Origin: an uncultured Clostridium sp.
Lineage (GTDB): Bacteria > Bacillota > Clostridia > TANB77 > CAG-508
Direction: 5' to 3'
NCBI GenBank assembly: GCA_902491155.1
Contig: CABUGH010000001.1
Span: forward strand, 28,177 to 92,176
Length of the DNA: 64,000 nucleotides
Below the pieces are notes generated by a model, which was given only the letters and a program-made list of their open reading frames with translations, was not told where the DNA came from and ran no database searches. Shown in pieces: positions 10,677-64,000 of the stretch. The position numbers were made by a program, and so were the translations under genes. How positions within the stretch are numbered: position 1 is the first letter of the stretch; the number at the start of each line of letters is the position of its first letter.

Positions 10677-11243
10677 ATGGCAACATTACCTATATTTGTA
10701 AAATATTTAATAACTTTTTTCATAAGTATGGTACCAATAGTAGAATTAAGAGGAGCAATACCTATTGCTGAAAGCTTAGGGCTTAACATTTTTACATATT
10801 ATCCTGTAGCAATAATAGGAAATATGTTACCTGTACCAATAATATATTTATTTGCAAGAAAAGTACTTGAATGGGGAAAAGACAAAAAAATAATTGGTAA
10901 ATTTTTTACTTGGTGTTTAGAAAAAGGTGAAAAAGGTGGACAAAAATTAAAAGAAACAGCAGGAGAACGAGGTCTATTTTTTGCTTTACTTTTATTTGTT
11001 GGTATCCCACTACCAGGAACAGGTGCATGGACAGGAACATTAGCTGCAAGCTTTTTAAATATCGATTTCAAAACAAGTATCTCTGCAGTAACTCTTGGTG
11101 TACTATTAGCTGGAATAATAATGTCTTTAGGGAGTAAATTTGTATCTACTCTAGGCTGGCCAGGATTAATTGCAATTATTGCAATACTATTAATAATTAT
11201 ATGCATATTTGTTTTCAAAGGAAAAAAGAAAAGCTCAAAATAA
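10677..11243 (+). CDS. Small multidrug-export-like membrane protein (COG2426 / Sm_multidrug_ex family)
   Basis: The sequence MATLPIFVKYLITFFISMVPIVELRGAIPIA matches the conserved N-terminus of this family and the protein has four transmembrane helices. The start is set at the internal ATG with RBS AGAAAGGA rather than the upstream ORF-track start at 10611. Confidence 0.6.
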   Translation: MATLPIFVKYLITFFISMVPIVELRGAIPIAESLGLNIFTYYPVAIIGNMLPVPIIYLFARKVLEWGKDKKIIGKFFTWCLEKGEKGGQKLKETAGERGLFFALLLFVGIPLPGTGAWTGTLAASFLNIDFKTSISAVTLGVLLAGIIMSLGSKFVSTLGWPGLIAIIAILLIIICIFVFKGKKKSSK

Positions 11244-11252
11244 TAACCAATT

Positions 11253-11291
11253 AGAGGTAAAAGTTTTCAAACTTTTACCTCTAAATTTTTA
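11253..11291 (+). terminator. Rho-independent terminator (AGAGGTAAAAGT-loop-ACTTTTACCTCT)
   Basis: A 12-bp perfect stem is followed by a T-rich tract. It lies between convergent genes. Confidence 0.6.
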
Positions 11292-12446
11292 TTAAACATA
11301 TTTTACATCATCATTCACAAAATCTTCTAAGACAAGTTTTATAACTGCTGCAACTGGAACAGCTAAAAACATGCCAACCATTCCAAAATATGCTCCACCA
11401 ACAGTAACAGAAAAAATAACTAACAATGGACTAATTTCTAAAGAATTTCCAATAATACGTGGATTAATAATATTCGCATCTATTTGTTGTAAAATAATTA
11501 CAACAATTGCCATAATCAAAGCTTGAAGCCAACCACCAGTAATAAAAGTAATTAAAATTGCAATTGCAACTGCAACAATAGCTCCAATATATGGAATCAA
11601 ATTAAATAATCCTATCATAAAACCTAACAAAGGTGCATATTTAACACCAATTATACTCATAGCAATAGTTGTTAAAATCCCAACAATAAATGCATCAATT
11701 ACCTGACTTCCAACAAACTTAAAAAACATTTCATTTGCTTGTCCAAAATATTTATTAATATGCTCATAAGTTTTTTTATTAAACACTCTTTTTGCTAATT
11801 TATCAAAAAATCTCATTATATCAGAGCGCTGTAACAAAACATAAACAGAAACAACTATTGATACAAAAATATCAAAAATAGAATAAAAAACATTCAATAT
11901 ATTTTGCAAATATTGTAATACTTTATCATAATTCAAGCTTAATACCTGTTGAATATCTATATTTTTTACATTTTCTATAATTGATTTTGCAGCATCACTT
12001 TTAAAAATCGAATCCTCTGGCAAATCATTTAATTGATTAATAATACTTTCATAATAAGATGGTATTCCAATAAATAATTCCATAATACTATCTTTTAAAA
12101 TAGGAAAAATAAAATTAATAATAATTATAAGTATTAAAAACACTATCACATATGTAGTAAATACGCTTAAACCTCTTGCATGCTTAGAAAAAATTTTAAC
12201 TTTTGAACTTTTAAATGTTTTTTCAATTTTCCTACATGGTAACATCAAAATATATGCTATAAAAATGCCTACTAAAAAAGGTTTTAATACTTTAAGTAAT
12301 ACTCCAAACCATTCTTGAACATTTCCAAAATTATCAAATATTTTATAAACAATAATCACACAAACAGCTAATATAAAATAAGATAACCACCTTTTTGCAC
12401 TTAATTTTTTTACTTCTCTCTTTTCTTCTTTAATATTATTTATCAT
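11292..12446 (-). CDS. AI-2E family transporter (PerM/UPF0118 permease)
   Basis: The 384-aa polytopic membrane protein has the length and topology of this family and a conserved C-terminal region (GGAYFGMVGMFLAVPVAA). Confidence 0.75.
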   Translation of the reverse strand: MINNIKEEKREVKKLSAKRWLSYFILAVCVIIVYKIFDNFGNVQEWFGVLLKVLKPFLVGIFIAYILMLPCRKIEKTFKSSKVKIFSKHARGLSVFTTYVIVFLILIIIINFIFPILKDSIMELFIGIPSYYESIINQLNDLPEDSIFKSDAAKSIIENVKNIDIQQVLSLNYDKVLQYLQNILNVFYSIFDIFVSIVVSVYVLLQRSDIMRFFDKLAKRVFNKKTYEHINKYFGQANEMFFKFVGSQVIDAFIVGILTTIAMSIIGVKYAPLLGFMIGLFNLIPYIGAIVAVAIAILITFITGGWLQALIMAIVVIILQQIDANIINPRIIGNSLEISPLLVIFSVTVGGAYFGMVGMFLAVPVAAVIKLVLEDFVNDDVKYV

Positions 12447-37523: not shown

Positions 37524-37781
37524 TTAAACTTTTCTATAAATAAAAATTGAAAGCACCATACCAATAATACTAGCAATATTAATTTTAAACATCAATCCAA
37601 ATGTTAATTTTAATATACTTAAATCCAATATAAGTGGCTCATTTAGTCCAAATTCCTGTTCAAATGAAAGCCACCATAACCATGGTACACTACTAGCTAA
37701 TTTTCCAATAAGTCCCCCAATTACTAATCCTGATAAAATAAATACCATTAATACCCATATATTTTTTTCTCTCGTTGCCAT
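37524..37781 (-). CDS. Small membrane protein (DUF4321-like)
   Basis: The 85-aa ORF has two predicted TM helices. A small membrane ORF is commonly found between maf/radC in Clostridia. Confidence 0.45.
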   Translation of the reverse strand: MATREKNIWVLMVFILSGLVIGGLIGKLASSVPWLWWLSFEQEFGLNEPLILDLSILKLTFGLMFKINIASIIGMVLSIFIYRKV

Positions 37782-38031: not shown

Positions 38032-38640
38032 TTGAAAATAGAAAAATTAACAAATAACAAAATAAGAATTATTTTAAAACAAGAAGACTTAAAAAACAAT
38101 AAAATAACTGCAAAATCAATTTTATCATCAAATCAATATTCACAAAAACTATTGCTAGATATTTTAAATTTCGCTCAAAAAGAAGTTGATTTTGATACAA
38201 ATGGATATAAACTACTTATAGAAACTTTTTCAACTTCTGAAGATAATATAGTATTTACTATAACTAAATTTAAAAATGAAAAAAATTCTATAAAACTAGC
38301 AAGAAAAATATCAAGCAAAATTCAAAATTTTTACATATATCAATTTAATAATTTTAATGATTTTTGCAACTTTTGTAGTACAATAAAAACAAACACCTTA
38401 TCAACATGTCCACAAGTAAAATACTCAACTCTTTATTATTATAAAAACAAATTTTATTTAACATTATCTAAATTTGATACAAAAAGCAAAAACACTTTTA
38501 ATTTTCTCTCATTAATTAACGAGTTTGCTTATTATACTACAAACAATATTAACTTTGAAAACATTTTAAAAGAACATGGAAAAATAATTATTAAAAAAGA
38601 TGCAATTTTAACAGCTAAAAAATATTTCACAAAATCTTAA
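38032..38640 (+). CDS. mecA: MecA-like adaptor protein (short form)
   Basis: The N-terminus MKIEKLTNNKIRIILKQEDLKNNKIT matches the conserved MecA start (MEIE[RK]IN.NT[IL]K[IV]..S.EDLE.RGI). It uses a TTG start with RBS AAGGAGGG. Confidence 0.7.
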   Translation: MKIEKLTNNKIRIILKQEDLKNNKITAKSILSSNQYSQKLLLDILNFAQKEVDFDTNGYKLLIETFSTSEDNIVFTITKFKNEKNSIKLARKISSKIQNFYIYQFNNFNDFCNFCSTIKTNTLSTCPQVKYSTLYYYKNKFYLTLSKFDTKSKNTFNFLSLINEFAYYTTNNINFENILKEHGKIIIKKDAILTAKKYFTKS

Positions 38641-38644
38641 ATAA

Positions 38645-38790
38645 CAAAAGCGGACATTATAGCATTAGCACTTATTAGAATATTTTAAAGTCTGCGTTTT
38701 TGTTCTCGCACGAAATTTGCAAGGCAAATTTCTGTGCATTGGTATTTTTATATTATAGGAAGTTCGAAGAACTTTCATATAATGTAAAAA
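38645..38790 (+). ncRNA. Conserved ~150-nt structured intergenic element, copy 1 (candidate sRNA or cis-regulatory RNA)
   Basis: The region is about 85% identical to 59775-59925. It has a 6-bp helix GCGGAC/GUCUGC, a long hairpin GCACGAAAUUUGC..GCAAAUUUCUGUGC and a second hairpin GGAAGUUC..GAACUUUC, and it ends at a terminator. Confidence 0.5.
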
Positions 38791-38830
38791 TGGTATAAAT
38801 TTTCTATATAAATTTATACCATTTTTATAT
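38791..38830. terminator. Bidirectional terminator (GGTATAAATTT-tctatat-AAATTTATACC)
   Basis: An 11-bp perfect stem has T-runs on both strands. It lies between the convergent mecA-like and M23 peptidase genes. Confidence 0.65.
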
Positions 38831-39990: not shown

Positions 39991-40233
39991 TTAAGAAAAA
40001 TTAGTTTTTATGTTATTAATTTCTGTAACTGTAGCCTTTTGTGCTGGAATATAATACCCTTTTGTTTGAGCTAATTTAAACAACTCATATTGGAAACTTT
40101 CATCATTATTTCTTATTTGTTGAAAAGTTTGCCTAAGTCCCATATTTTCAGACTCAGAAATTGCTGTTTGATATGCAGTTAAATCTGCTTTTACACTACC
40201 TAAAACATCATTAACCATAGTCTTTTCATCCAT
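39991..40233 (-). CDS. Spore coat protein F (Coat_F) family protein
   Basis: The 80-aa ORF MVNDVLGSVKADLTAYQTAISESENMGLRQTFQQIRNN matches the Coat_F domain pattern. Confidence 0.55.
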   Translation of the reverse strand: MDEKTMVNDVLGSVKADLTAYQTAISESENMGLRQTFQQIRNNDESFQYELFKLAQTKGYYIPAQKATVTEINNIKTNFS

Positions 40234-54237: not shown

Positions 54238-56257
54238 TCATTCATCAATTGGTCCAAATAATTCATCAAACTTGGCCTCAAGTTCTTTCTGTAAATCATA
54301 TTCATCATCTTGTGGAAGTACAGGGGCCTCATCTCCAAAATCTTCTAAAGAAGTAACATTTGTACCGACTTTTACTGGTATTTTTTCTTCTATTTTGTCA
54401 ACATTTTGGGCAAGAGATTCTTTTTTCACATCTTCATCATCTTCAAACAAATCATCTAAAGATTCTACTTTTAAATCTTCAACTTTTTGTTCTTCGCTTT
54501 CTGGTACATATGGATTATATGGATTATACTTTCTCCATCCTCCTCTTTGTATTTCTCCAATATCATTATGACTAATTTCATGACTAGCTAATTCCTTTGC
54601 CATAGGATGTTTAAAATAATAAAATTTTGGTGCTTTTACAGGTTTCAAACCTTTAACAAATATAATACATTGATCTATATCCATTCTACGCAACTCATCC
54701 GGAGTCATTAAAGCACGCGCCATAACTTGATCTGATATGCTCTTTCCTGTTTTATGGTTTTCTTTATCCTTACTTATTGAAATACTATCTCTGCCTATTG
54801 TTTTCTCACCTAATTGCTTTGAAAAATATTCAACAGTTTTAAAAGAGTTACTTCCCAAAAATAAATGTGTATCACAATTTCCCATTATAGTCTCATAAGA
54901 TTTTTCATAAACAGCCTCTAATTGATCTACATTTTGTAAAATTACACTAAATGAAATTTTTCTACTTCTTGAAGTTGAAATTTTTTTATCAAAATCAGGT
55001 ATTTTTCCTATATTTGCAAATTCATCTAATATAAAAAATGTTTGTTCCTTCAATTTTCCACCATTTTGGTCAGCATAATCATATAATTGTTGTATCATTT
55101 GTGAAAAAAATATTGTTAGCAAAAAGTCATATGCAGTATGTGTATCAGAAGAAATTACATAAACTGCTGTCTTTTGATTTCCGATCTCTTCAAAGTCAAT
55201 TGTATCTGTAGATGTTAATTCAGCTATTTCCTTAGAATCAAATTTACCTAGTTTTGATTGTAAAGTACTTAAAATAGAACTATATGTTTTTTCTGGTGCA
55301 ATTTCAATAGATTTATAATACATCCTAGCAGGATGATCATATGGTAAAGCACTAATTAACTCTGTTAATAAATTACTCCCTCCATTTGAGTTTGCCGCTC
55401 TAACTAATTCCGCACAGCTAGCCAAATTTTGTTCTTCCTTTGGTCTTGTTGCCAATAAATAATAAATCAAAGCTTTTAACAGCATTTCCGCTGAATCATC
55501 CCAAAAAGGTTCAGAACTCCCTCCATCTGTTTTTTGACCTCTAATAATGGTATTTGCAATTACATCGACATCGATTTCTGAAGATATGTGCATTAATGGA
55601 TTATATCCATCACTATATTGAGGCCTTACTAAATTTAAAACTTTAATTTTATAACCATGATCTTTTAAATATCCTGCTGTTCTATCATACAATTCACCTT
55701 TTGGATCTGTAAAAACATATGAACCAAGCATTTGATATGCATTTGGAATTGAATATGATGCTGATTTACCAGAACCAGAACCGTCCAACTACCAACACAT
55801 TTACATTTCCTCTTTTATCTACAGGTAAATAATTATTTTCCGCTAAAATAATTCCTTTGTTTTTATTTAATATAGCATATTGTTCACCATGTTGACTCCA
55901 ATCACTTGAACCATGTTCTATATCTGTATATTCACTCTTGGGCGCAGACTTAAAAACGCCAATAATAAAAGCCACAATATAAATAATTGTAAATCCCAAT
56001 AATGTAGATAAAAAATTACTTACTGCACCATTAGAAAATATACTTCCAAATGATTTAAAAGGATGAATTATATTTTTTGTAAAATTACTCAAAAACAAAG
56101 CAAGATCAAATGTATCACCTTTTCCCACTTGAAAAATAGAATACGAAAAAGGCGAAATAAATATTAAGACTAAAATAAGCCATAATATTCCGCCAACAAT
56201 AAACTTTTTCCTATTCTTTTTTAATGCACCTTCTATTTTATAGTTCATTAATATCAC
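54238..56257 (-). pseudogene. Type IV secretion coupling protein (VirD4/TraG/TraD family), frameshifted into two ORFs (55766-56257 N-terminal TM part; 54238-55788 ATPase part)
   Basis: The N-fragment has two TM helices and ends ...NVNVLVVG. The C-fragment begins in the +1 frame with DGSGSGKS (Walker A), then DPKGELY..NPL and DEF (Walker B), and ends in an acidic tail. The two ORFs overlap by 23 nt. Confidence 0.75.
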
Positions 56258-56278
56258 CTACTCTTTTGTTAATAACTC

Positions 56279-56650
56279 TTAACCTCTATCTATTTCTGAT
56301 TTATTATTTGATTCAATAACTTTAATACTTTTACCTCTGTTTTTACGTTGTTCATCAATTTTTTTAAACAATTCTGCATTAGCTTCTATAACTTGACCAT
56401 CAACTATTCTAATAGCTAGACCTGTTTCTGAATCATATCTACATTCATTATCTCTAGCCACAGTTTGCACTAGTTCTTCCACAATATGTTCTGCAATATC
56501 ATCTTTTTGTGCTATAGCTTGTACTTTTGTTGCATCCCCTGGTCTTTGACCATTTTTTAATTCATTTTGTACTTCTGCAAGTATAGAACAAACAATTTGT
56601 ATTCTCATTTTTCCATCATCTTTTTGAGATTCTGTGCTCGCATTTACCAT
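56279..56650 (-). CDS. Hypothetical protein (123 aa)
   Basis: The ORF lies adjacent to the coupling-protein gene on the same strand. No family was recognised. Confidence 0.4.
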   Translation of the reverse strand: MVNASTESQKDDGKMRIQIVCSILAEVQNELKNGQRPGDATKVQAIAQKDDIAEHIVEELVQTVARDNECRYDSETGLAIRIVDGQVIEANAELFKKIDEQRKNRGKSIKVIESNNKSEIDRG

Positions 56651-56664
56651 TTAAAACTTCCTCC

Positions 56665-57189
56665 TTAATAATCTTTTTTGTCTCTGATTTCAAAGGCAAA
56701 ATAAGATTTATATGGTTTTAATTTACACTTACCTTTCACTTCATTTGTTTTTTCATCAAAATAAAGAACTGGCTTTACCTCTTCTGTATTTTCTGGATCT
56801 ATAATACATATAGGTCTTTTCAAATTTGGCGTATAGCGAAAATCTTTATATTCTGTTTCTGTTTCAGTATACAAACTATCAAGCTTTAGTGGCATTGGCT
56901 TTTTAGAAATAGAAATCTTATTTTCTTCCAAAATTGCCATATTTACAACAACTCGTTCTTTTGCAAAAGACAAAATTACCAATTGGTCTTCATTTTCTGA
57001 TGGATTGTCTACATAAAATGTCTTTCTAATATTTTCACCTCTTAATTCTTCAGAAAAATCTAATCTTTGTATTGTATATTTTGGTGAATCTGGTAAAAAT
57101 TCTTTTTCTGTTTTATTTACTTGGTATATTACTGTTCTAACACCTTTAGGATCTGTTATACTAAAGTGTTTTCCTTGCCACATATCCAT
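56665..57189 (-). CDS. Hypothetical protein (174 aa)
   Basis: No family was recognised. It sits in the same strand block as the T4CP remnant. Confidence 0.4.
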   Translation of the reverse strand: MDMWQGKHFSITDPKGVRTVIYQVNKTEKEFLPDSPKYTIQRLDFSEELRGENIRKTFYVDNPSENEDQLVILSFAKERVVVNMAILEENKISISKKPMPLKLDSLYTETETEYKDFRYTPNLKRPICIIDPENTEEVKPVLYFDEKTNEVKGKCKLKPYKSYFAFEIRDKKDY

Positions 57190-57311
57190 TTATGACACCC
57201 CTCTTCTATGATTATATACATAGCTTGTCTTTTGCATGCCCACTTCTAATTATACTCAAAAACAAGCTTTTTGTCAACACAAAATTATGTTAATTTATTT
57301 AATATTATATA

Positions 57312-58246: not shown

Positions 58247-59686
58247 TTATTTATTTTTTTCAGATTTCACATAATCCTTCGCAATTTCAAAGAATTTCAT
58301 ACCATTTGAAGCCTTAAAAAGAATTACATCACCAGATTTAACATTATCAATCAAGTATTTTAATATCTCATCTTTATTCTCAAAATAATACGCTTTTTTG
58401 CTATCAAGACTAACTTTTTTCACTTGTTCAAAAATAAATTTAGCATTATCACCACAACATAATAAAATATCAACATCACTATCTAATACAGCATCACCTA
58501 TTTTTCTATGCATTTCTTCAGCAAAATTACCCAACTCAAAAACATCACCTAATACAGCAATTTTTCTTCTTCCCTTATACTCATCCAAGCACCTCAAAAC
58601 AGCTGTAATAGACTCAAAACTTGCATTATAAGCATCATTTATAACTGTAACACCATTTTTTAAATTTTCAACTTCCATTCTTTTTTTGGTCAAAGAAAAA
58701 CTCTCTATCCCATTTTTTATTTTCTCATTCTCTATACCTAAAATCTTTCCGACAAGAGTCGCACATAAAGCATTATATACAAAATGTACTCCACCAACAG
58801 GAACTTTAACTAAAAAAGATTTTTCTATTCCATTTTCAACCACATGACAATTAAACTCACTACTATTTTCTTCTAATATTATATTATCTGCCCAAACCTC
58901 ACCACGATTCTCAATTCCAAAACAGTGAATTTTTAATTCTCCATTATTTAAATTTTCCTTATTCCATTCATCTAGTAAATCATTATCACAATTAATAATT
59001 ATTTCTTTTTTTTGCATTCCCTCCAATATTTCCAATTTTGATTTTAATATATTTTCCCTTGAACCCAAATTACCAATATGTGAAGTTCCTATATTCGTTA
59101 TTACTGCCAAATTAGGCTTTGCAATATTAGTTAAAACTCTAATCTCGCCAAAATGATTCATCCCCATTTCAACTACAGCAACCTCTTCGTCAGTTAATCT
59201 AAGTAAAGTCAATGGTACACCTATATGATTATTATAATTTCCCATTGTTTTTAAAGTTTTATATTTTTGCGAAACAACACTAGCTATCATATCTTTTGTG
59301 CTAGTTTTTCCAACACTACCAGTAATAGCAATCACTTTTAAATCTTTTCCATATAAATCCCTTTTATATGTGGCAATTTTCTGTAAAGCTTCCAAGGTAT
59401 TATCTACAACTATAATCGTTTTATTAGACCATTTTCTTAATGCCTCTTTGTCTAACTTTATCTTATTTATAATAACTACCTCTCCACCATTTTTAAAAGC
59501 TTCTTCCCAATATTGGCTACCATCTATTGTATCAGCTTTTATTCCAATATAAGTATCACTTTTTCTCATAATACGTGTATCATAATTAAATTCACCACAA
59601 ACAAATTCCAAATCCCCCTGCAATAGATCTCCTCCAGTTATTTTTAAAATATCTTTTACTTTTAATTCTTTCAACATATTATTCAA
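58247..59686 (-). CDS. murF: UDP-N-acetylmuramoyl-tripeptide--D-alanyl-D-alanine ligase
   Basis: The Mur ligase P-loop ITGSVGKTSTKDMIASV and the domain order match MurF. The ORF is 479 aa. Confidence 0.85.
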   Translation of the reverse strand: MNNMLKELKVKDILKITGGDLLQGDLEFVCGEFNYDTRIMRKSDTYIGIKADTIDGSQYWEEAFKNGGEVVIINKIKLDKEALRKWSNKTIIVVDNTLEALQKIATYKRDLYGKDLKVIAITGSVGKTSTKDMIASVVSQKYKTLKTMGNYNNHIGVPLTLLRLTDEEVAVVEMGMNHFGEIRVLTNIAKPNLAVITNIGTSHIGNLGSRENILKSKLEILEGMQKKEIIINCDNDLLDEWNKENLNNGELKIHCFGIENRGEVWADNIILEENSSEFNCHVVENGIEKSFLVKVPVGGVHFVYNALCATLVGKILGIENEKIKNGIESFSLTKKRMEVENLKNGVTVINDAYNASFESITAVLRCLDEYKGRRKIAVLGDVFELGNFAEEMHRKIGDAVLDSDVDILLCCGDNAKFIFEQVKKVSLDSKKAYYFENKDEILKYLIDNVKSGDVILFKASNGMKFFEIAKDYVKSEKNK

Positions 59687-59774
59687 GACCTTTCTTAACT
59701 TTATATAAATATAGTTTATTTTATTTTTTTCATTTTATTATAAAAAACAAGAAAAATCAAGCATTCAATTTTAG

Positions 59775-59925
59775 AACAAAAGTGGACATTAATAATATTA
59801 GCACTTATTAGAACATTTTAAAGTCCGCGTCTTTGTTCTCGCACAGAAATTTGCTTTGCAAATTTCTGTGCATTGTTATTTTTTATATTATATGGAAGTT
59901 CTTTGAACTTCCATATAATATAAAA
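59775..59925 (+). ncRNA. Conserved ~150-nt structured intergenic element, copy 2
   Basis: This region is homologous to 38645-38790. Hairpin 1 is perfect here (GCACAGAAAUUUGC/GCAAAUUUCUGUGC) and hairpin 2 is a perfect 13-bp palindrome (TATATGGAAGTTC ttt GAACTTCCATATA). The 6-bp helix has a compensatory change to GUGGAC/GUCCGC. Confidence 0.5.
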
Positions 59926-59958
59926 AAAGACCTAGCATAAAACTAGATCTTTTATCAA
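59925..59958. terminator. Bidirectional terminator (AGACCTAG-cataaaa-CTAGATCT) flanked by A- and T-runs
   Basis: It lies directly downstream of the giant surface protein gene, with TTTTTTT on the minus strand after the stem. Confidence 0.6.
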
Positions 59959-59959
59959 A

Positions 59960-62900
59960 TTACTTTAATGCTTTTTTCTTAATGATTATTATTCCTACTG
60001 CCAAAACAACTAATACTGTTATTCCTAATACAGTATATAGAATTAAACTTTTTGAAATACCCGTTGGTGGATGTATAATAATATCTTCTGGATAATGGAA
60101 ATCTGGTTCCTTATTTGTACCCGGATTTTTATTATTTACATCTGCTGGATCTGGTTGATTTGGATTAAAGTTACCTAATGTTTCTCCAAAAGTCCCATTA
60201 GTATCTTGCTTATAAATCTCTCTACCCCATGTCTTTGTAACTTCAACAATTTCAGTCCAATCAGAATATTTCATATCATCCTGTGTAGGAGTTAATGTTC
60301 TATTTACTAATAGTTTTGTAGGTTGACTTGTTTGACCAGGTTTAAGTGCTGACCTGTCAAAATATTGTCCTAATAAAACTGTTGTATATGTAGAATCATT
60401 CGTACTAGAATTTGTCAATTTTTCCTTTACATCTTCTGCTATCCATTTACTAGCATCTGTTTTCCAATTCATCTTATTCCATTTGTAATCACTATTCTTT
60501 GTTGAATCAGTCAACATTTGGCTATTATCATCATAGAATAATTCATTATCAACATAGTTTATCATATTAGAAACTGTAACTCGTACAATATTACTATCCG
60601 TACCCCTAGTTCCATTTCTATAATAATCTTTAGTATTATAATCAAGTTCACTTTTATTAGTTACTGTAAATCCATACTCTACATACAATTCTGCTCTTTG
60701 TAAAATTTCAGAATCCAATTCCATCTCTAATGAACCTTTTACAGCTTTTTGTGTCTTGCTAGTTCTTCCTGTTGATGGCAAATATTTTACATTAGGTACA
60801 TTCATATCTGCACTAGGTACAATTTCTTTTATAGTATTTCCATCACTTGATTTTAATAATATTTTATTTATCTTATCATCAACTTGTACTTTATATCTCG
60901 CTCTTTCTACAATTCCAAAATCAATATTATTAATTGTGTAATCAGGTTCTGCTGCATTTTCTGCATTTTCAGTAAACCTATTATCTTTTTCATATAAGAA
61001 TTCCATACTTGGTGTAAATGCATCTATTTTTAAATTAGAATCAATACTTGTATCATATTTTAAATGTTGAACATTATCACCATTAGCCCAAGTCTTTTCT
61101 ATATCTGTCCTTTTTTTAGAACCATCATTTAGCATTGATAATTTATAATACTCATCAAAATTATCATAAACATCCATTGCATCAGAATATCTTGTATTTA
61201 CATTTTCTTTATACCAATTAACATTATGTGATTTATAATTACTGCTCTCTCTATTTTTATCATAGATAGTTGCCTGATATTGTTGCACTGGATATTGAGC
61301 ATTTCCATATTGATAAACAACTACATAATTACCTGGAAGAAATCCCGACAATTCATATGAACCATCATTTTTTGTTTCAGTAGTCAACTCTGAAATTCCA
61401 CTATCTGCGTATCTATATGCAACATTAGCAACATTGCTATTTGCACCAATATCTATTAGTTTTACTTTTACACCACTAACTCTTTTTGTATCTTGACTAT
61501 TTAAGATTCCGTCACCTTTTCTTTCTTGACCTTCCTTAAATTCTTGATCTGTATGATCTTCAAACACTACACCACTTGTAATTCTGGTTTTACTTGAAAT
61601 CATCAAATTAACATCTGGTGCCCAACCCAAATCATCTTCAACAGTTTGAAGTCTTCTACTTGGATCTGCATTTCCAACAGCAGAATCATTATCTATAGCT
61701 GTATATGGTTTTCCATTTTTTTGTGCAGAACATGAATTTATTTCACTAACATTAGCTGCAATATTCACACCCTGACCAGGATTTAAGTTTACTAAACTTA
61801 ATAATTTTTCTTGATTAACTTGATATCTTACATATATTGTAGTATTTGAACCAATATTAATATTTACTTTATTGTATTCATTATTATATTTTTCAACACT
61901 ACTATATTGAACTCCTTGTCCATAATTAATCACACCTGCATTTTTATCAATACTTGCACTATTTGATACACCTACTAACGTTAATCCACTATCAAAGTAA
62001 TTTACAATATTATTAACTGTTGTATTTATTGATGTATTCTGGTTTTGAACCACTATCTCATATGTCAAATATAATTTTAATGATTCTTGGTTTTGATTAT
62101 TATATAAAATATCTGACTTATATAATTCTCTTTCAAGTGATTTGTTATAAACATCACTCATTCTAACTTTTATATCAAAATTATCATTTCTATTATATTC
62201 ATAAACATGTGAATACGTTTTACCATAATCTTGTCTTGTTAAATCAACTTGAGCTGCATATAATTTATCTTTTATTGCCATATCTGGTAAATCTCTTTCA
62301 TAGATTCCAAAATTTACGTTTGAAATAGTTTTATCAACAATATTTTGCTTAGAAAGATCATATTTAGCATTTTGTGTACTAGCAGTTATATGATATTTAT
62401 CATTTGCATAATAAGTATTGTCATAAGAATGACCCTTATCATCTTTTGCATTTGTTTCATAAATTACCTTACTTTCATATCTACCCTCATTTGGATATTG
62501 AGAATATTTATATTCAACAGTACTTCCAGATACACTATTATTAATACTTCTTCCATTAGCATCTATCTTTGAATTTGATGTTACAGTTGAATACTTCCAA
62601 TTCATATATGATCTATCTTCTGAAGATTCTGAGGCCTTTGAACCATTATTTGCAAAACTTGTTGCAACATTTTCGTATTTAATACCATTATATTCAAATA
62701 TTACTTTATAACTACTCAATTCAGTTTTTGCTATTTTCAAATCTTCTCCATAGAATTTATATTTACCATCTTTTCCTGTTGAATTTCCTCTACTATCATA
62801 TCCAGAAGAAACTTCAGCAACTTTTTCATCACCCTTTTTCAAGATAACTCTAACACCATTTATGCCTTCGCCATCTTCACAAATATCATTTCTAATATTA

Positions 62901-64000
62901 GTTTTTCCTTTTCCTCCATCTAAGAATACAGTACCTTCAATATCAACAGATTCTGCTTTATTTGGTACAGTAACTGTATCATCATCAACAAGAGTAATTC
63001 CATTTGCATTTTCTACATAATATCCAGTTGGCGCTTCTACTTCATAAGCTTCATACTCACCATTTCTAAGATTTTCTAATTTTATCATACCTAATGCATC
63101 TGTAACAAATATATTTGCTTTTTGCTCAGTATCTAGTTCTAATGAAGAATTTAACCACTTATTTTCTGTTTTATTTTTTATTTTAAATTTTGCACCCTGT
63201 AATGCTTTATTTTCATTATCTGCATCACATTTATAAATATTAAAACTTAAAGTTTTTAAAGTGTTATAAACTTCTGTAACTTCATTTTTCTCTAATTCTA
63301 TGCCATTTCCTTCTGTTACAATATATCCCTCTGGTGCCTGAATTTCATATGCCACATATGTTGCATCAATAGGAACATCATCTATTTCTATTAATCCGTC
63401 TTTATCTGTAGTAAATTCTGCTGCTTCAGCCTCAGCAACTAATTCACTTTTTGCATTTAAATATTTTCCTGTTTTTTCATCTTTTATTTTAAACACTGCA
63501 CCCTGTAATGGTTTATTTGTTTCATCATCTAATTTTTTAATTGTTAAACTTATACTTTTTGTATTCGGAATAACAGTAGTATCATCTGCCTCTAATGATA
63601 TTCCATCAGCATACGAAACAGTATATCCTTCTGGTGCCTCTACTTCATATGCTTTATAATCACCTGCTGGAACATCTTTTATACTAATAATACCTTTAGC
63701 ATTAGTTGTAAATTTATATGCATTCTGTGCAGCAACTAGTGCTCCAGATGAATTCAAATATTTTTTTGTTTTTTCGTCTCTAATCTTAAACACTGCACCT
63801 TTTAAAGGAACCTTTGTTTTACTATCAATTTTCTTTATTTGTAAATCAATATTAGTATCTTGTGGATTACCTATTGGAGTCTTTGCATTCATTTTTAAAG
63901 TAACTCCTGTAGACCTACCAACATATCCATCAGGTACTTTAGTCTCATAAGCAATATATGTAGCCTTTTTAATTTTAGGAATATTAATTTCTCCTTTTTC
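59960..64000 (-). CDS. Giant cell-surface protein with tandem Cna-B/SpaA-type (isopeptide-fold) domains and a C-terminal sorting signal (HPPTG + TM + KKKALK). The N-terminus lies beyond the window.
   Basis: At least 4 N-terminal repeats follow the KGAVFKI[KR]DEKTxKYL...DGxIxIxDVPxGxYxAYEVEAPEGY pattern. The reading frame is open upstream of the track's Met through position 64000. Confidence 0.8.
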   Translation of the reverse strand, partial: EKGEINIPKIKKATYIAYETKVPDGYVGRSTGVTLKMNAKTPIGNPQDTNIDLQIKKIDSKTKVPLKGAVFKIRDEKTKKYLNSSGALVAAQNAYKFTTNAKGIISIKDVPAGDYKAYEVEAPEGYTVSYADGISLEADDTTVIPNTKSISLTIKKLDDETNKPLQGAVFKIKDEKTGKYLNAKSELVAEAEAAEFTTDKDGLIEIDDVPIDATYVAYEIQAPEGYIVTEGNGIELEKNEVTEVYNTLKTLSFNIYKCDADNENKALQGAKFKIKNKTENKWLNSSLELDTEQKANIFVTDALGMIKLENLRNGEYEAYEVEAPTGYYVENANGITLVDDDTVTVPNKAESVDIEGTVFLDGGKGKTNIRNDICEDGEGINGVRVILKKGDEKVAEVSSGYDSRGNSTGKDGKYKFYGEDLKIAKTELSSYKVIFEYNGIKYENVATSFANNGSKASESSEDRSYMNWKYSTVTSNSKIDANGRSINNSVSGSTVEYKYSQYPNEGRYESKVIYETNAKDDKGHSYDNTYYANDKYHITASTQNAKYDLSKQNIVDKTISNVNFGIYERDLPDMAIKDKLYAAQVDLTRQDYGKTYSHVYEYNRNDNFDIKVRMSDVYNKSLERELYKSDILYNNQNQESLKLYLTYEIVVQNQNTSINTTVNNIVNYFDSGLTLVGVSNSASIDKNAGVINYGQGVQYSSVEKYNNEYNKVNINIGSNTTIYVRYQVNQEKLLSLVNLNPGQGVNIAANVSEINSCSAQKNGKPYTAIDNDSAVGNADPSRRLQTVEDDLGWAPDVNLMISSKTRITSGVVFEDHTDQEFKEGQERKGDGILNSQDTKRVSGVKVKLIDIGANSNVANVAYRYADSGISELTTETKNDGSYELSGFLPGNYVVVYQYGNAQYPVQQYQATIYDKNRESSNYKSHNVNWYKENVNTRYSDAMDVYDNFDEYYKLSMLNDGSKKRTDIEKTWANGDNVQHLKYDTSIDSNLKIDAFTPSMEFLYEKDNRFTENAENAAEPDYTINNIDFGIVERARYKVQVDDKINKILLKSSDGNTIKEIVPSADMNVPNVKYLPSTGRTSKTQKAVKGSLEMELDSEILQRAELYVEYGFTVTNKSELDYNTKDYYRNGTRGTDSNIVRVTVSNMINYVDNELFYDDNSQMLTDSTKNSDYKWNKMNWKTDASKWIAEDVKEKLTNSSTNDSTYTTVLLGQYFDRSALKPGQTSQPTKLLVNRTLTPTQDDMKYSDWTEIVEVTKTWGREIYKQDTNGTFGETLGNFNPNQPDPADVNNKNPGTNKEPDFHYPEDIIIHPPTGISKSLILYTVLGITVLVVLAVGIIIIKKKALK

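Follow-up and report, generated by a model that had tools for sequence, protein, structure and literature searches.

The closest described counterpart of the sequence reported here is bcr1 of the Bacillus cereus group, a multi-copy intergenic repeat of about 155 bp whose distribution is not conserved between related strains. Its independent stem-loops are preserved through compensatory changes, although copies become structurally less stable with age, and it is flanked by 5-bp direct repeats of the TTTAT type (PMC3184786). In Streptococcus pneumoniae, the BOX repeat (boxA-boxB-boxC) is a structured, co-transcribed composite of 67-637 bp found as full units, partial units, and lone modules (PMC3049150, PMC3184786). 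SPRITE is an AT-rich repeat of about 105 nt in which an 18-bp duplex is followed by a U-rich tract; its only "terminal inverted repeats" (TIRs) are AAAA/TTTT, and no target-site duplication (TSD) has been established. Repetitive extragenic palindromes (REPs) are 20-40 bp long, GC-rich, tagged by GTAG/CGTC, and associated with RAYTs. REP/BIME elements and REPINs are extragenic palindromes near gene 3' ends that form hairpins in the 3' ends of mRNAs, affect termination and mRNA stability, and have been proposed to be mobilized in trans (PMC3733652). bcr1, BOX, RUP, and SPRITE are precedents with the same general properties (PMC3184786, PMC3049150) as the element of about 150 nt described here, which occurs twice in a 64,000-nt stretch of DNA (the window) from an uncultured Clostridium species (contig CABUGH010000001.1). 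We file the element as a previously undescribed repeat family of a known kind that belongs to no named family, bcr1 and SPRITE being set apart from it by description. With moderate confidence, we interpret it as a non-autonomous structured repeat resembling MITEs (miniature inverted-repeat transposable elements), which inserts in a fixed orientation beside terminators, evolves in concert, decays by deletion, and affects the cell incidentally.

Both copies lie on the + strand, at about 38642-38790 and 59773-59928, where the original prediction had located them. An alignment of 151 positions shows about 19 differences, which corresponds to about 87% identity (about 85% had been estimated), and the similarity between them ends sharply at both borders. 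Folding recovered the three shared helices that had been proposed, named P1, P2, and P3 here. P1 is an interrupted 13-bp stem of the general form AACAAA-A-GCGGAC, loop of about 35 nt, GUCYGC-GUYUUUGUU. P2 is a hairpin of 13-14 bp with the general form GCAC(A)GAAAUUUGC / GCAAAUUUCUGUGC, and P3 is a duplex of about 20 bp, rich in A and U, with a U-run on its 5' side and an A-run on its 3' side. The features of the two copies are as follows.

38642-38790, + strand: copy 1 (P1+P2+P3), slightly decayed, with G-U in P1, a bulge in P2, and mismatches in P3; 10 polymorphic sites among strains
38643-38704, + strand: copy 1 P1, 13-bp interrupted stem AACAAA.GCGGAC / GUCUGC.UUUUUGUU, its loop (about 35 nt) containing a small AU hairpin
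38708-38737, + strand: copy 1 P2, GCAC-GAAAUUUGC AAG GCAAAUUUCUGUGC, one bulged base, then a U-rich tail
38745-38790, + strand: copy 1 P3, long AU-rich hairpin with 5' U-run and 3' A-run
59773-59928, + strand: copy 2 (P1+P2+P3), hairpins near-perfect; 6 polymorphic sites among strains
59774-59838, + strand: copy 2 P1, GAACAAA.GUGGAC / GUCCGC.UCUUUGUUC, loop of about 35 nt
59841-59871, + strand: copy 2 P2, perfect 14-bp hairpin, then AUUGUUAUUUUUU; terminator-like score on the + strand only
59879-59928, + strand: copy 2 P3, AU-rich hairpin without mismatches, about 20 bp, with U-run/A-run; 59890 and 59916 change together from A-U to C-G in other strains

The bulged long hairpin (P2) of copy 1 and its perfect counterpart in copy 2 were as predicted. 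Compared with shuffled controls, the + strand gave folding z-scores of -7.7 (copy 1) and -11.5 (copy 2), and the - strand gave almost equal values (-7.0 and -10.6). The reverse strands fold nearly as well because the hairpins are palindromes; thus, folding energy alone gives no strand choice. Inspection by eye for a small peptide showed only open reading frames (ORFs) of 4-5 codons in both window copies.

A covariance model (R1) was built from 11 full copies. R1 matched copy 1 at 38639-38793 (152.5 bits, E ~1e-35) and copy 2 at 59771-59929 (166.4 bits, E ~1e-38); a scan of the 64-kb window at full sensitivity, with filters off, gave no third copy. An exact-pattern scan of one genome per species detected real copies in two human-gut metagenome-assembled genomes (MAGs) titled "Clostridia bacterium", with eight loci (nine copies) in CAKPOI01 and five loci in CAAECB01. 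After the model search these numbers were at least nine and at least six copies, respectively. Four of the 17 genome pattern matches were rejected as chance hits inside an ABC-transporter gene, as were the two matches of a first 17-mer viral scan, both in coding DNA. R1 identified further copies in the flanks of pattern-found loci and copies in 26 of 57 metagenome contigs that had been drawn by a degenerate-pattern scan. In total, 48 matches (43 distinct) were obtained at about 25 independent loci, as judged by clustering of the flanks, from CAKPOI01, CAAECB01, human-gut metagenome contigs, and one IMG/VR contig. Nearly all copies were ascertained through a pattern for the P1 loop, and all sequences are short-read metagenome assemblies. 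The species of the window is neither of the two MAGs and is common in gut metagenomes. The unit has a GC content of 27-33%, is always intergenic and multi-copy, and is confined to an uncultured low-GC lineage of gut Clostridia, a poorly known part of the human gut flora to which a repeat family is thereby added.

Copies of the repeat occur on two viral-classed contigs of IMG/VR: a full copy cut by the contig end (L095, 14584-14695) and a 32-nt stump (L094, 1860-1892). Either these contigs are prophage regions from this lineage, or bacterial sequence was wrongly classed as viral.

Comparison with Rfam 15 gave no match in the whole window at gathering score. Scans of both copies at permissive E-values returned just generic hairpin (miRNA-precursor) noise far below gathering scores, and scans of related loci were negative. 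By BLAST, no similar sequence was found in plasmid and phage collections.

The flanks of the approximately 25 loci, which come from several genomes, are mutually unrelated on both sides. This excludes the explanation, raised with the original prediction, that the copies are relics of a duplicated gene 3' end. A relic of this kind, a segmental duplication, or an assembly artefact might have been suspected from two copies in the window that both adjoin gene ends. The sharp loss of similarity at the element borders, together with the recurrence of the gene orders mecA-element-M23 and ligase-element-adhesin in dozens of independent assemblies, refutes this idea and leaves it next to no credibility. 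The recurrence of both orders also means that the window is not a chimera. Occurrence at many unrelated intergenic loci within a narrow lineage, with presence or absence at orthologous sites (see below), is what characterizes small interspersed intergenic repeats in general.

Conservation starts exactly at (TA)GAAC, the base of P1, and nothing upstream of it is shared. Across 17 junctions, TIRs as they define a classical MITE were absent: the 5' end, GAACAAAAG, does not reappear in inverted form as the 3' end, CTAGAATATAAAAAA, and inverted repeats are internal to each hairpin. No matching flank pairs indicative of a TSD were seen at these junctions, the flanks being A/T-rich and offering no high-identity empty site for comparison. 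The dinucleotide TA precedes GAAC in 9 of 13 clear junctions. Promoter searches on both strands of the element revealed no convincing site, and promoter-like counts equaled those of shuffled sequences. No transposase was present among the neighbors examined (loci of 3-15 kb around the copies), and TnpA, TnpB, and RAYT in particular were not seen next to any copy; neighbor genes are housekeeping genes (mraW, ftsL, spoIIIA, HU, amino-acid kinase). A gene-carrying version with the ends of the element was not found either. The agreement with bcr1, which is a likeness by description, extends to size, host phylum, multi-hairpin fold, covariation, and loss of stability. In contrast to bcr1, the element showed no detectable 5-bp direct repeats and resides in gut Clostridia rather than Bacillus.

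We further determined whether the helices are maintained within the family. In an alignment of 19 copies, 95% of cells were paired and 17 of 50 pairs changed on both sides. None of 500 shuffles reached the observed values for pairing and two-sided change, and slid registers dropped to 32-51% pairing. Thus, the helices are maintained. True two-sided changes include GCGAAC/GUUCGC in P1 of other copies and the change from UUAUA/UAUAA to UUCUA/UAGAA in P3 (A-U to C-G). The example put forward by the original prediction is not of this type. It had correctly read the 6-bp helix of P1 as GCGGAC/GUCUGC with one G-U in copy 1 and GUGGAC/GUCCGC with one U-G at a different position in copy 2, but the difference between them amounts to two independent one-sided wobble transitions and not to a compensatory change. 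The accompanying claim that each variant pairs fully only as + strand RNA applied to the two window copies and was reduced to a tendency across the family: with one representative per locus, pairs possible on one strand only comprised 35 G-U cells versus 18 A-C cells, and G-U was the majority state at two paired positions. The G-U excess leans to the + strand; it is modest, the events are not independent, and the alignment was fitted to a + strand model.

This asymmetry bears on an alternative explanation, namely that the copies form a functional + strand RNA family of trans-acting small RNAs (sRNAs) or RNAs derived from 3' untranslated regions (3' UTRs). The functional domain would then be P1 with its 35-nt loop, the 3' end would come from P2 or from the adjoining terminator of the host, and the orientation of the copies would reflect the need for a downstream terminator. 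Covariation in all three helices, the wobble counts with their two G-U-majority positions, and the complete pairing of the window copies on the + strand only are in line with this explanation, as is P2 followed by AUUGUUAUUUUUU, which resembles an intrinsic terminator on the + strand only. However, the covariance-model alignment itself favors G-U, no conserved promoter exists within or upstream of the repeat, and Rfam provides no match. Approximately half of the full copies, copy 2 included, lie antisense between two genes of the same strand, so that unrelated flanks would have to provide the promoter. Taken together with the variability and decay described below, these findings make a functional RNA family unlikely. 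The original prediction had left the choice between small RNAs and 3'-UTR/REP-like elements; what stands of it is the REP-like repeat, multi-copy and with covarying hairpins. An independent sRNA family does not stand, given that no promoter is shared, copies are truncated or missing from site to site, the quoted "compensatory" pair consists of wobbles, and the element is the most variable stretch of its locus.

The variability became evident when strains that were 99.7-100% identical over 6.4-6.7 kb were compared. Copy 1 (147 nt) contained 10 polymorphic sites, or 6.8 per 100 nt, and copy 2 (152 nt) contained 6, or 3.9 per 100 nt. The flanking genes and spacers had 0.2-1.0 polymorphic sites per 100 nt, and the two adjacent terminators had none (0 per 100 nt). 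The element is therefore 4-20 times more polymorphic than the adjacent genes and spacers, and two of the variable sites fall in the P1 loop. Other ortholog pairs mostly behaved alike, as exemplified by L041 and L057, with 94.8% identity in the element versus 99.8-100% in the flanks. Fourteen of the 16 variant alleles are states found at the same position in paralogous copies (32% expected, p ~7e-6). The paired A>C/T>G change in P3 of copy 2, which restores the family consensus, is among them. Such a pattern is as expected if copies undergo gene conversion with one another or if palindromes repeatedly template mutations, and it does not fit an RNA under purifying selection. An sRNA gene would be conserved above the neutral level and have a conserved promoter of its own, and neither property was seen in the element. 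The P1 loop was almost invariant in most copies, which would speak for a functional RNA domain, but this near-invariance arose because the copies were fished with a P1-loop pattern: three P1-bearing copies that were found without the pattern carried 3-7 loop changes or an 11-nt deletion.

Hence, the hairpins are kept by two-sided changes although no other segment of the locus evolves as fast as the element. From the combination of covariation and hypervariability, we deduced that "compensatory" changes in palindromic repeats can come from gene conversion or template switching and are no proof of a functional RNA. Consistent with switching, loops occur in both orientations, as AAA and TTT in P2 and as GAA and TTC in P3 of the orthologs L062 and L011. 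Loop flips of this type are a signature of DNA-level switching between the arms of a palindrome.

Incomplete copies were analyzed next to their full relatives. In L017 and L035, the stretch that separates two TCTG repeats is gone. In comparison with their near-identical ortholog L014, L061 and L071 are missing 89 nt comprising P1 and half of P2, and the viral-classed contig L094 retains only its 32 nt, fused to the A-run and the terminator. The arrangements seen were P1 only, P2 and P3 only, and tandem (P1P2P3 followed directly by P1). In this occurrence in partial and tandem forms the element resembles BOX. Modularity of the BOX type was considered and downgraded, as the partial copies are products of deletion between short direct repeats; in addition, BOX has TIRs, TSDs, and a variable number of boxB modules, whereas no TIRs and no convincing TSDs were found here. 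Such decay is not what a functional + strand RNA family would lead one to expect. Two operons harbor P1-only stumps in the sense direction, one in the mraW-ftsL gap and one in the spoIIIAD-spoIIIAE gap; at such positions, a full copy would have a polar effect through its P2 and P3.

A site without the element was identified in the window itself.

11243-11304, no strand assigned: empty site, a 62-nt intergenic region with its own terminator

The syntenic region of a related MAG (L013) measures 294 nt and contains a full copy; its flanks are about 85% identical to those in the window, with an inexact junction. Presence and absence at orthologous sites are thus represented by L013 (filled) versus the window (empty), and full and truncated states by L014 versus L061 and L071.

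The position of the copies follows a strict rule. A locus-specific hairpin with a T-run was present 0-3 nt past the 3' A-run in 19 of 21 independent P3-bearing copies, and mean flank energies were -12.9 kcal/mol on the 3' side versus -5.0 on the 5' side. In the window, the prediction of a bidirectional terminator directly after both copies was borne out.

38786-38826, no strand assigned: locus-specific bidirectional terminator composed of A-run, 12-bp stem, and T-run; outside the repeat and invariant among strains
59922-59956, no strand assigned: bidirectional terminator of the adhesin gene, specific to this locus and directly adjoining the copy 2 A-run on its 3' side; no variation among strains

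The terminator hairpins vary from locus to locus and are present at the empty site as well; therefore, they belong to the target or neighborhood and are not cargo of the element. In about 15 of 19 loci, the gene on the downstream side is convergent; in one case, L019, it is tRNA-Met, and this locus obeys the terminator rule against the local majority direction of genes. In L010 and L067, a second unit starts directly after the AGAATA of the first and before the A-run, the outcome expected from repeated use of the same target. bcr1 has not been reported to abut terminators in a fixed orientation, as the element does. The resemblance to SPRITE is functional only: P2 with its U-tail is terminator-like, P3 forms a 20-bp AU duplex between T-run and A-run, and the copies lie at gene 3' ends. 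SPRITE differs from the element in the absence of the additional 5' P1 domain (35-nt loop) and of a second long hairpin, and the host lineages are unrelated. Furthermore, the element sits beside a pre-existing locus-specific terminator, with the same end always facing it, rather than replacing a terminator.

Selection for harmless sites explains the location at gene ends but leaves unaccounted for that it is always the same end that points to the hairpin. Either the terminator orients insertion, or only copies with a downstream terminator persist. The strict, oriented adjacency provides a concrete lead on the insertion mechanism. It is a long shot that this adjacency and the wobble bias toward the + strand reflect something new, namely that a non-coding unit of 150 nt inserts under the guidance of intrinsic-terminator hairpins, or else that the copies are dispersed terminator-coupled + strand RNAs whose conserved P1 loop acts in trans. 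Hairpin-guided insertion may find an analogy in group IIC introns, which it would resemble, and an element of this kind might move via a single-stranded DNA or RNA intermediate, given the A-rich 3' end and the 5'-truncated copies.

The orientation of the copies is also relevant to a related proposal, in which the element derives from a single-strand DNA transposon, as an IS200/IS605-type PATE or a REP/RAYT-like unit whose hairpins are recognized on one strand by a Y1/HUH transposase. Such an origin would account for the fact that no TIRs or convincing TSDs were found, for the asymmetry between strands, and for the constant orientation, and it would be compatible with the MITE-like repeat that we prefer, as its mobilization step. 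Hairpins at both ends, wobble pairs that prefer one strand, and TA ahead of GAAC at most clear junctions are in agreement with it. Moreover, most full copies run against the local majority gene direction and have a negative GC skew in their own orientation. This local trend in GC skew and gene strand is, however, confounded with terminator adjacency. As orientation tracks the terminator even against gene direction (L019), a cause linked to the replication strand was rejected as not needed. With neither TnpA, TnpB, or RAYT beside the copies nor a gene-carrying version with the same ends, a single-strand origin appears rather improbable. REPs proper are also dissimilar, since the element has 150 nt, about 30% GC, three different hairpins, no GTAG/CGTC tag, and no RAYT among the neighbors examined.

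In our preferred interpretation as a MITE-like repeat, the element would spread, or would have spread in the past, by oriented insertion beside intrinsic terminators, mobilized by some trans-acting enzyme. Gene conversion would exchange sequence among copies, and template switching within palindromes would alter arms and loops; either process could yield "compensatory" changes with no need for an RNA function. Where an upstream sense gene reads into the element, as mecA would into copy 1, the transcript would acquire P1, P2 with the U-rich tail, and P3 as a structured 3' end that could terminate transcription or protect the mRNA. This would be an incidental effect at the RNA level, probably limited to the 3' ends of co-transcribed mRNAs. 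It would account for the tolerance of full copies only at gene ends and of only P1 stumps inside operons.

Several points weigh against this interpretation. The rule that joins the 3' end to a terminator, in 19 of 21 loci, could mean a functional need for a downstream terminator rather than a choice of target, as the + strand RNA explanation would have it. The preponderance of G-U over A-C (35:18) hints at selection on a + strand RNA or a + single strand, and pure selfish DNA would not predict it. Neither a mobilizing enzyme nor an autonomous parent element turned up among the neighbors or in the plasmid and phage collections. The filled and the empty site are only about 85% identical, without an exact junction, so that insertion is not formally separable from deletion. 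Ascertainment through the P1 loop biases both copy number and loop conservation, and short-read assembly could have mixed up copies and thereby produced some of the surplus polymorphism.

Repeats of this kind interrupt assemblies of short reads, give rise to breakpoints in synteny, and can pass for sRNAs when screens rely on structure; having a model of the family improves MAG annotation and averts false calls of non-coding RNAs. Two breakpoints were observed exactly at the element in comparison with window positions 38700-38830. Contig L026 (1-100) is 99.7% identical to the window up to 38702 and continues with a P1-only copy, a ribosome-binding site, and the ATG of another gene. L069 (830-1204, 95.7%) contains mecA, a full element, a terminator, and rplL, with the same downstream sequence as L018. 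These breaks reflect either recombination between copies or mis-joins in the metagenomes.

The genes around the two window copies are listed below.

38032-38640, + strand: mecA-like adaptor gene; copy 1 starts 2-4 nt past its stop codon
38830-39849, - strand: convergent M23 peptidase gene, with 3' end and terminator directed toward the copy 1 3' end
58247-59677, - strand: Mur-ligase-family gene, starting at a distance of 97 nt from the copy 2 5' end; copy 2 runs antisense to this gene
59960-63892, - strand: adhesin gene with SpaA domains (product called at 1771 aa in other assemblies), with stop and terminator directed toward the copy 2 3' end

Because copy 1 starts so close to the mecA stop codon, it constitutes the mecA 3' UTR, and the terminator at 38786-38826 is common to mecA/copy 1 and the convergent M23 peptidase gene. 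Copy 2 is situated between the start of the Mur-ligase gene and the stop of the adhesin gene, antisense to both. As predicted, the M23 peptidase and the SpaA adhesin, both encoded on the - strand, end facing the element. Within the adhesin gene, window positions 63127-63845 comprise three direct repeats with a period of about 300 nt and 62-73% identity, corresponding to repeated SpaA/prealbumin-like domains. Beyond dnaJ, at a distance of a few genes from copy 2 (window ~55500-57300; L087-L093, 4989-6431), the strain contigs contain three small unannotated ORFs and a coupling protein of the TraG/VirD4 type that matches PF02534, PF10412, and PF12696. The coupling protein and the 1771-aa adhesin together suggest an integrated conjugative element beside the copy 2 locus.

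A CotF spore-coat gene and a DUF4321 gene are located at window positions 39991-40233 and 37524-37781, respectively. Along with mecA and the spoIIIA genes of related loci, they identify the host, which has about 27-30% GC, as a Firmicute that forms spores.

Neither tRNAs nor Rfam families were detected at the odd loci L057, L040, L044, and L066. On the - strand of L014 (2175-2666), a near-consensus promoter, TTGACA-17-TATAAT, lies just downstream of a P1-only remnant. The approximately 350 nt that follow contain no ORF and no Rfam or tRNA match, and the 3' end of the region faces a P2P3 copy. The region may be an unannotated non-coding RNA gene. Also on the - strand of L014 (~640-800), a tandem duplication of about 70 nt, kept in three assemblies (L014, L061, and L071), was found upstream of a copy; it contains the promoter-like sequence CTCCATTGAC-T7-GTGTCTACACACAC-T5-GTTAATATTATA.

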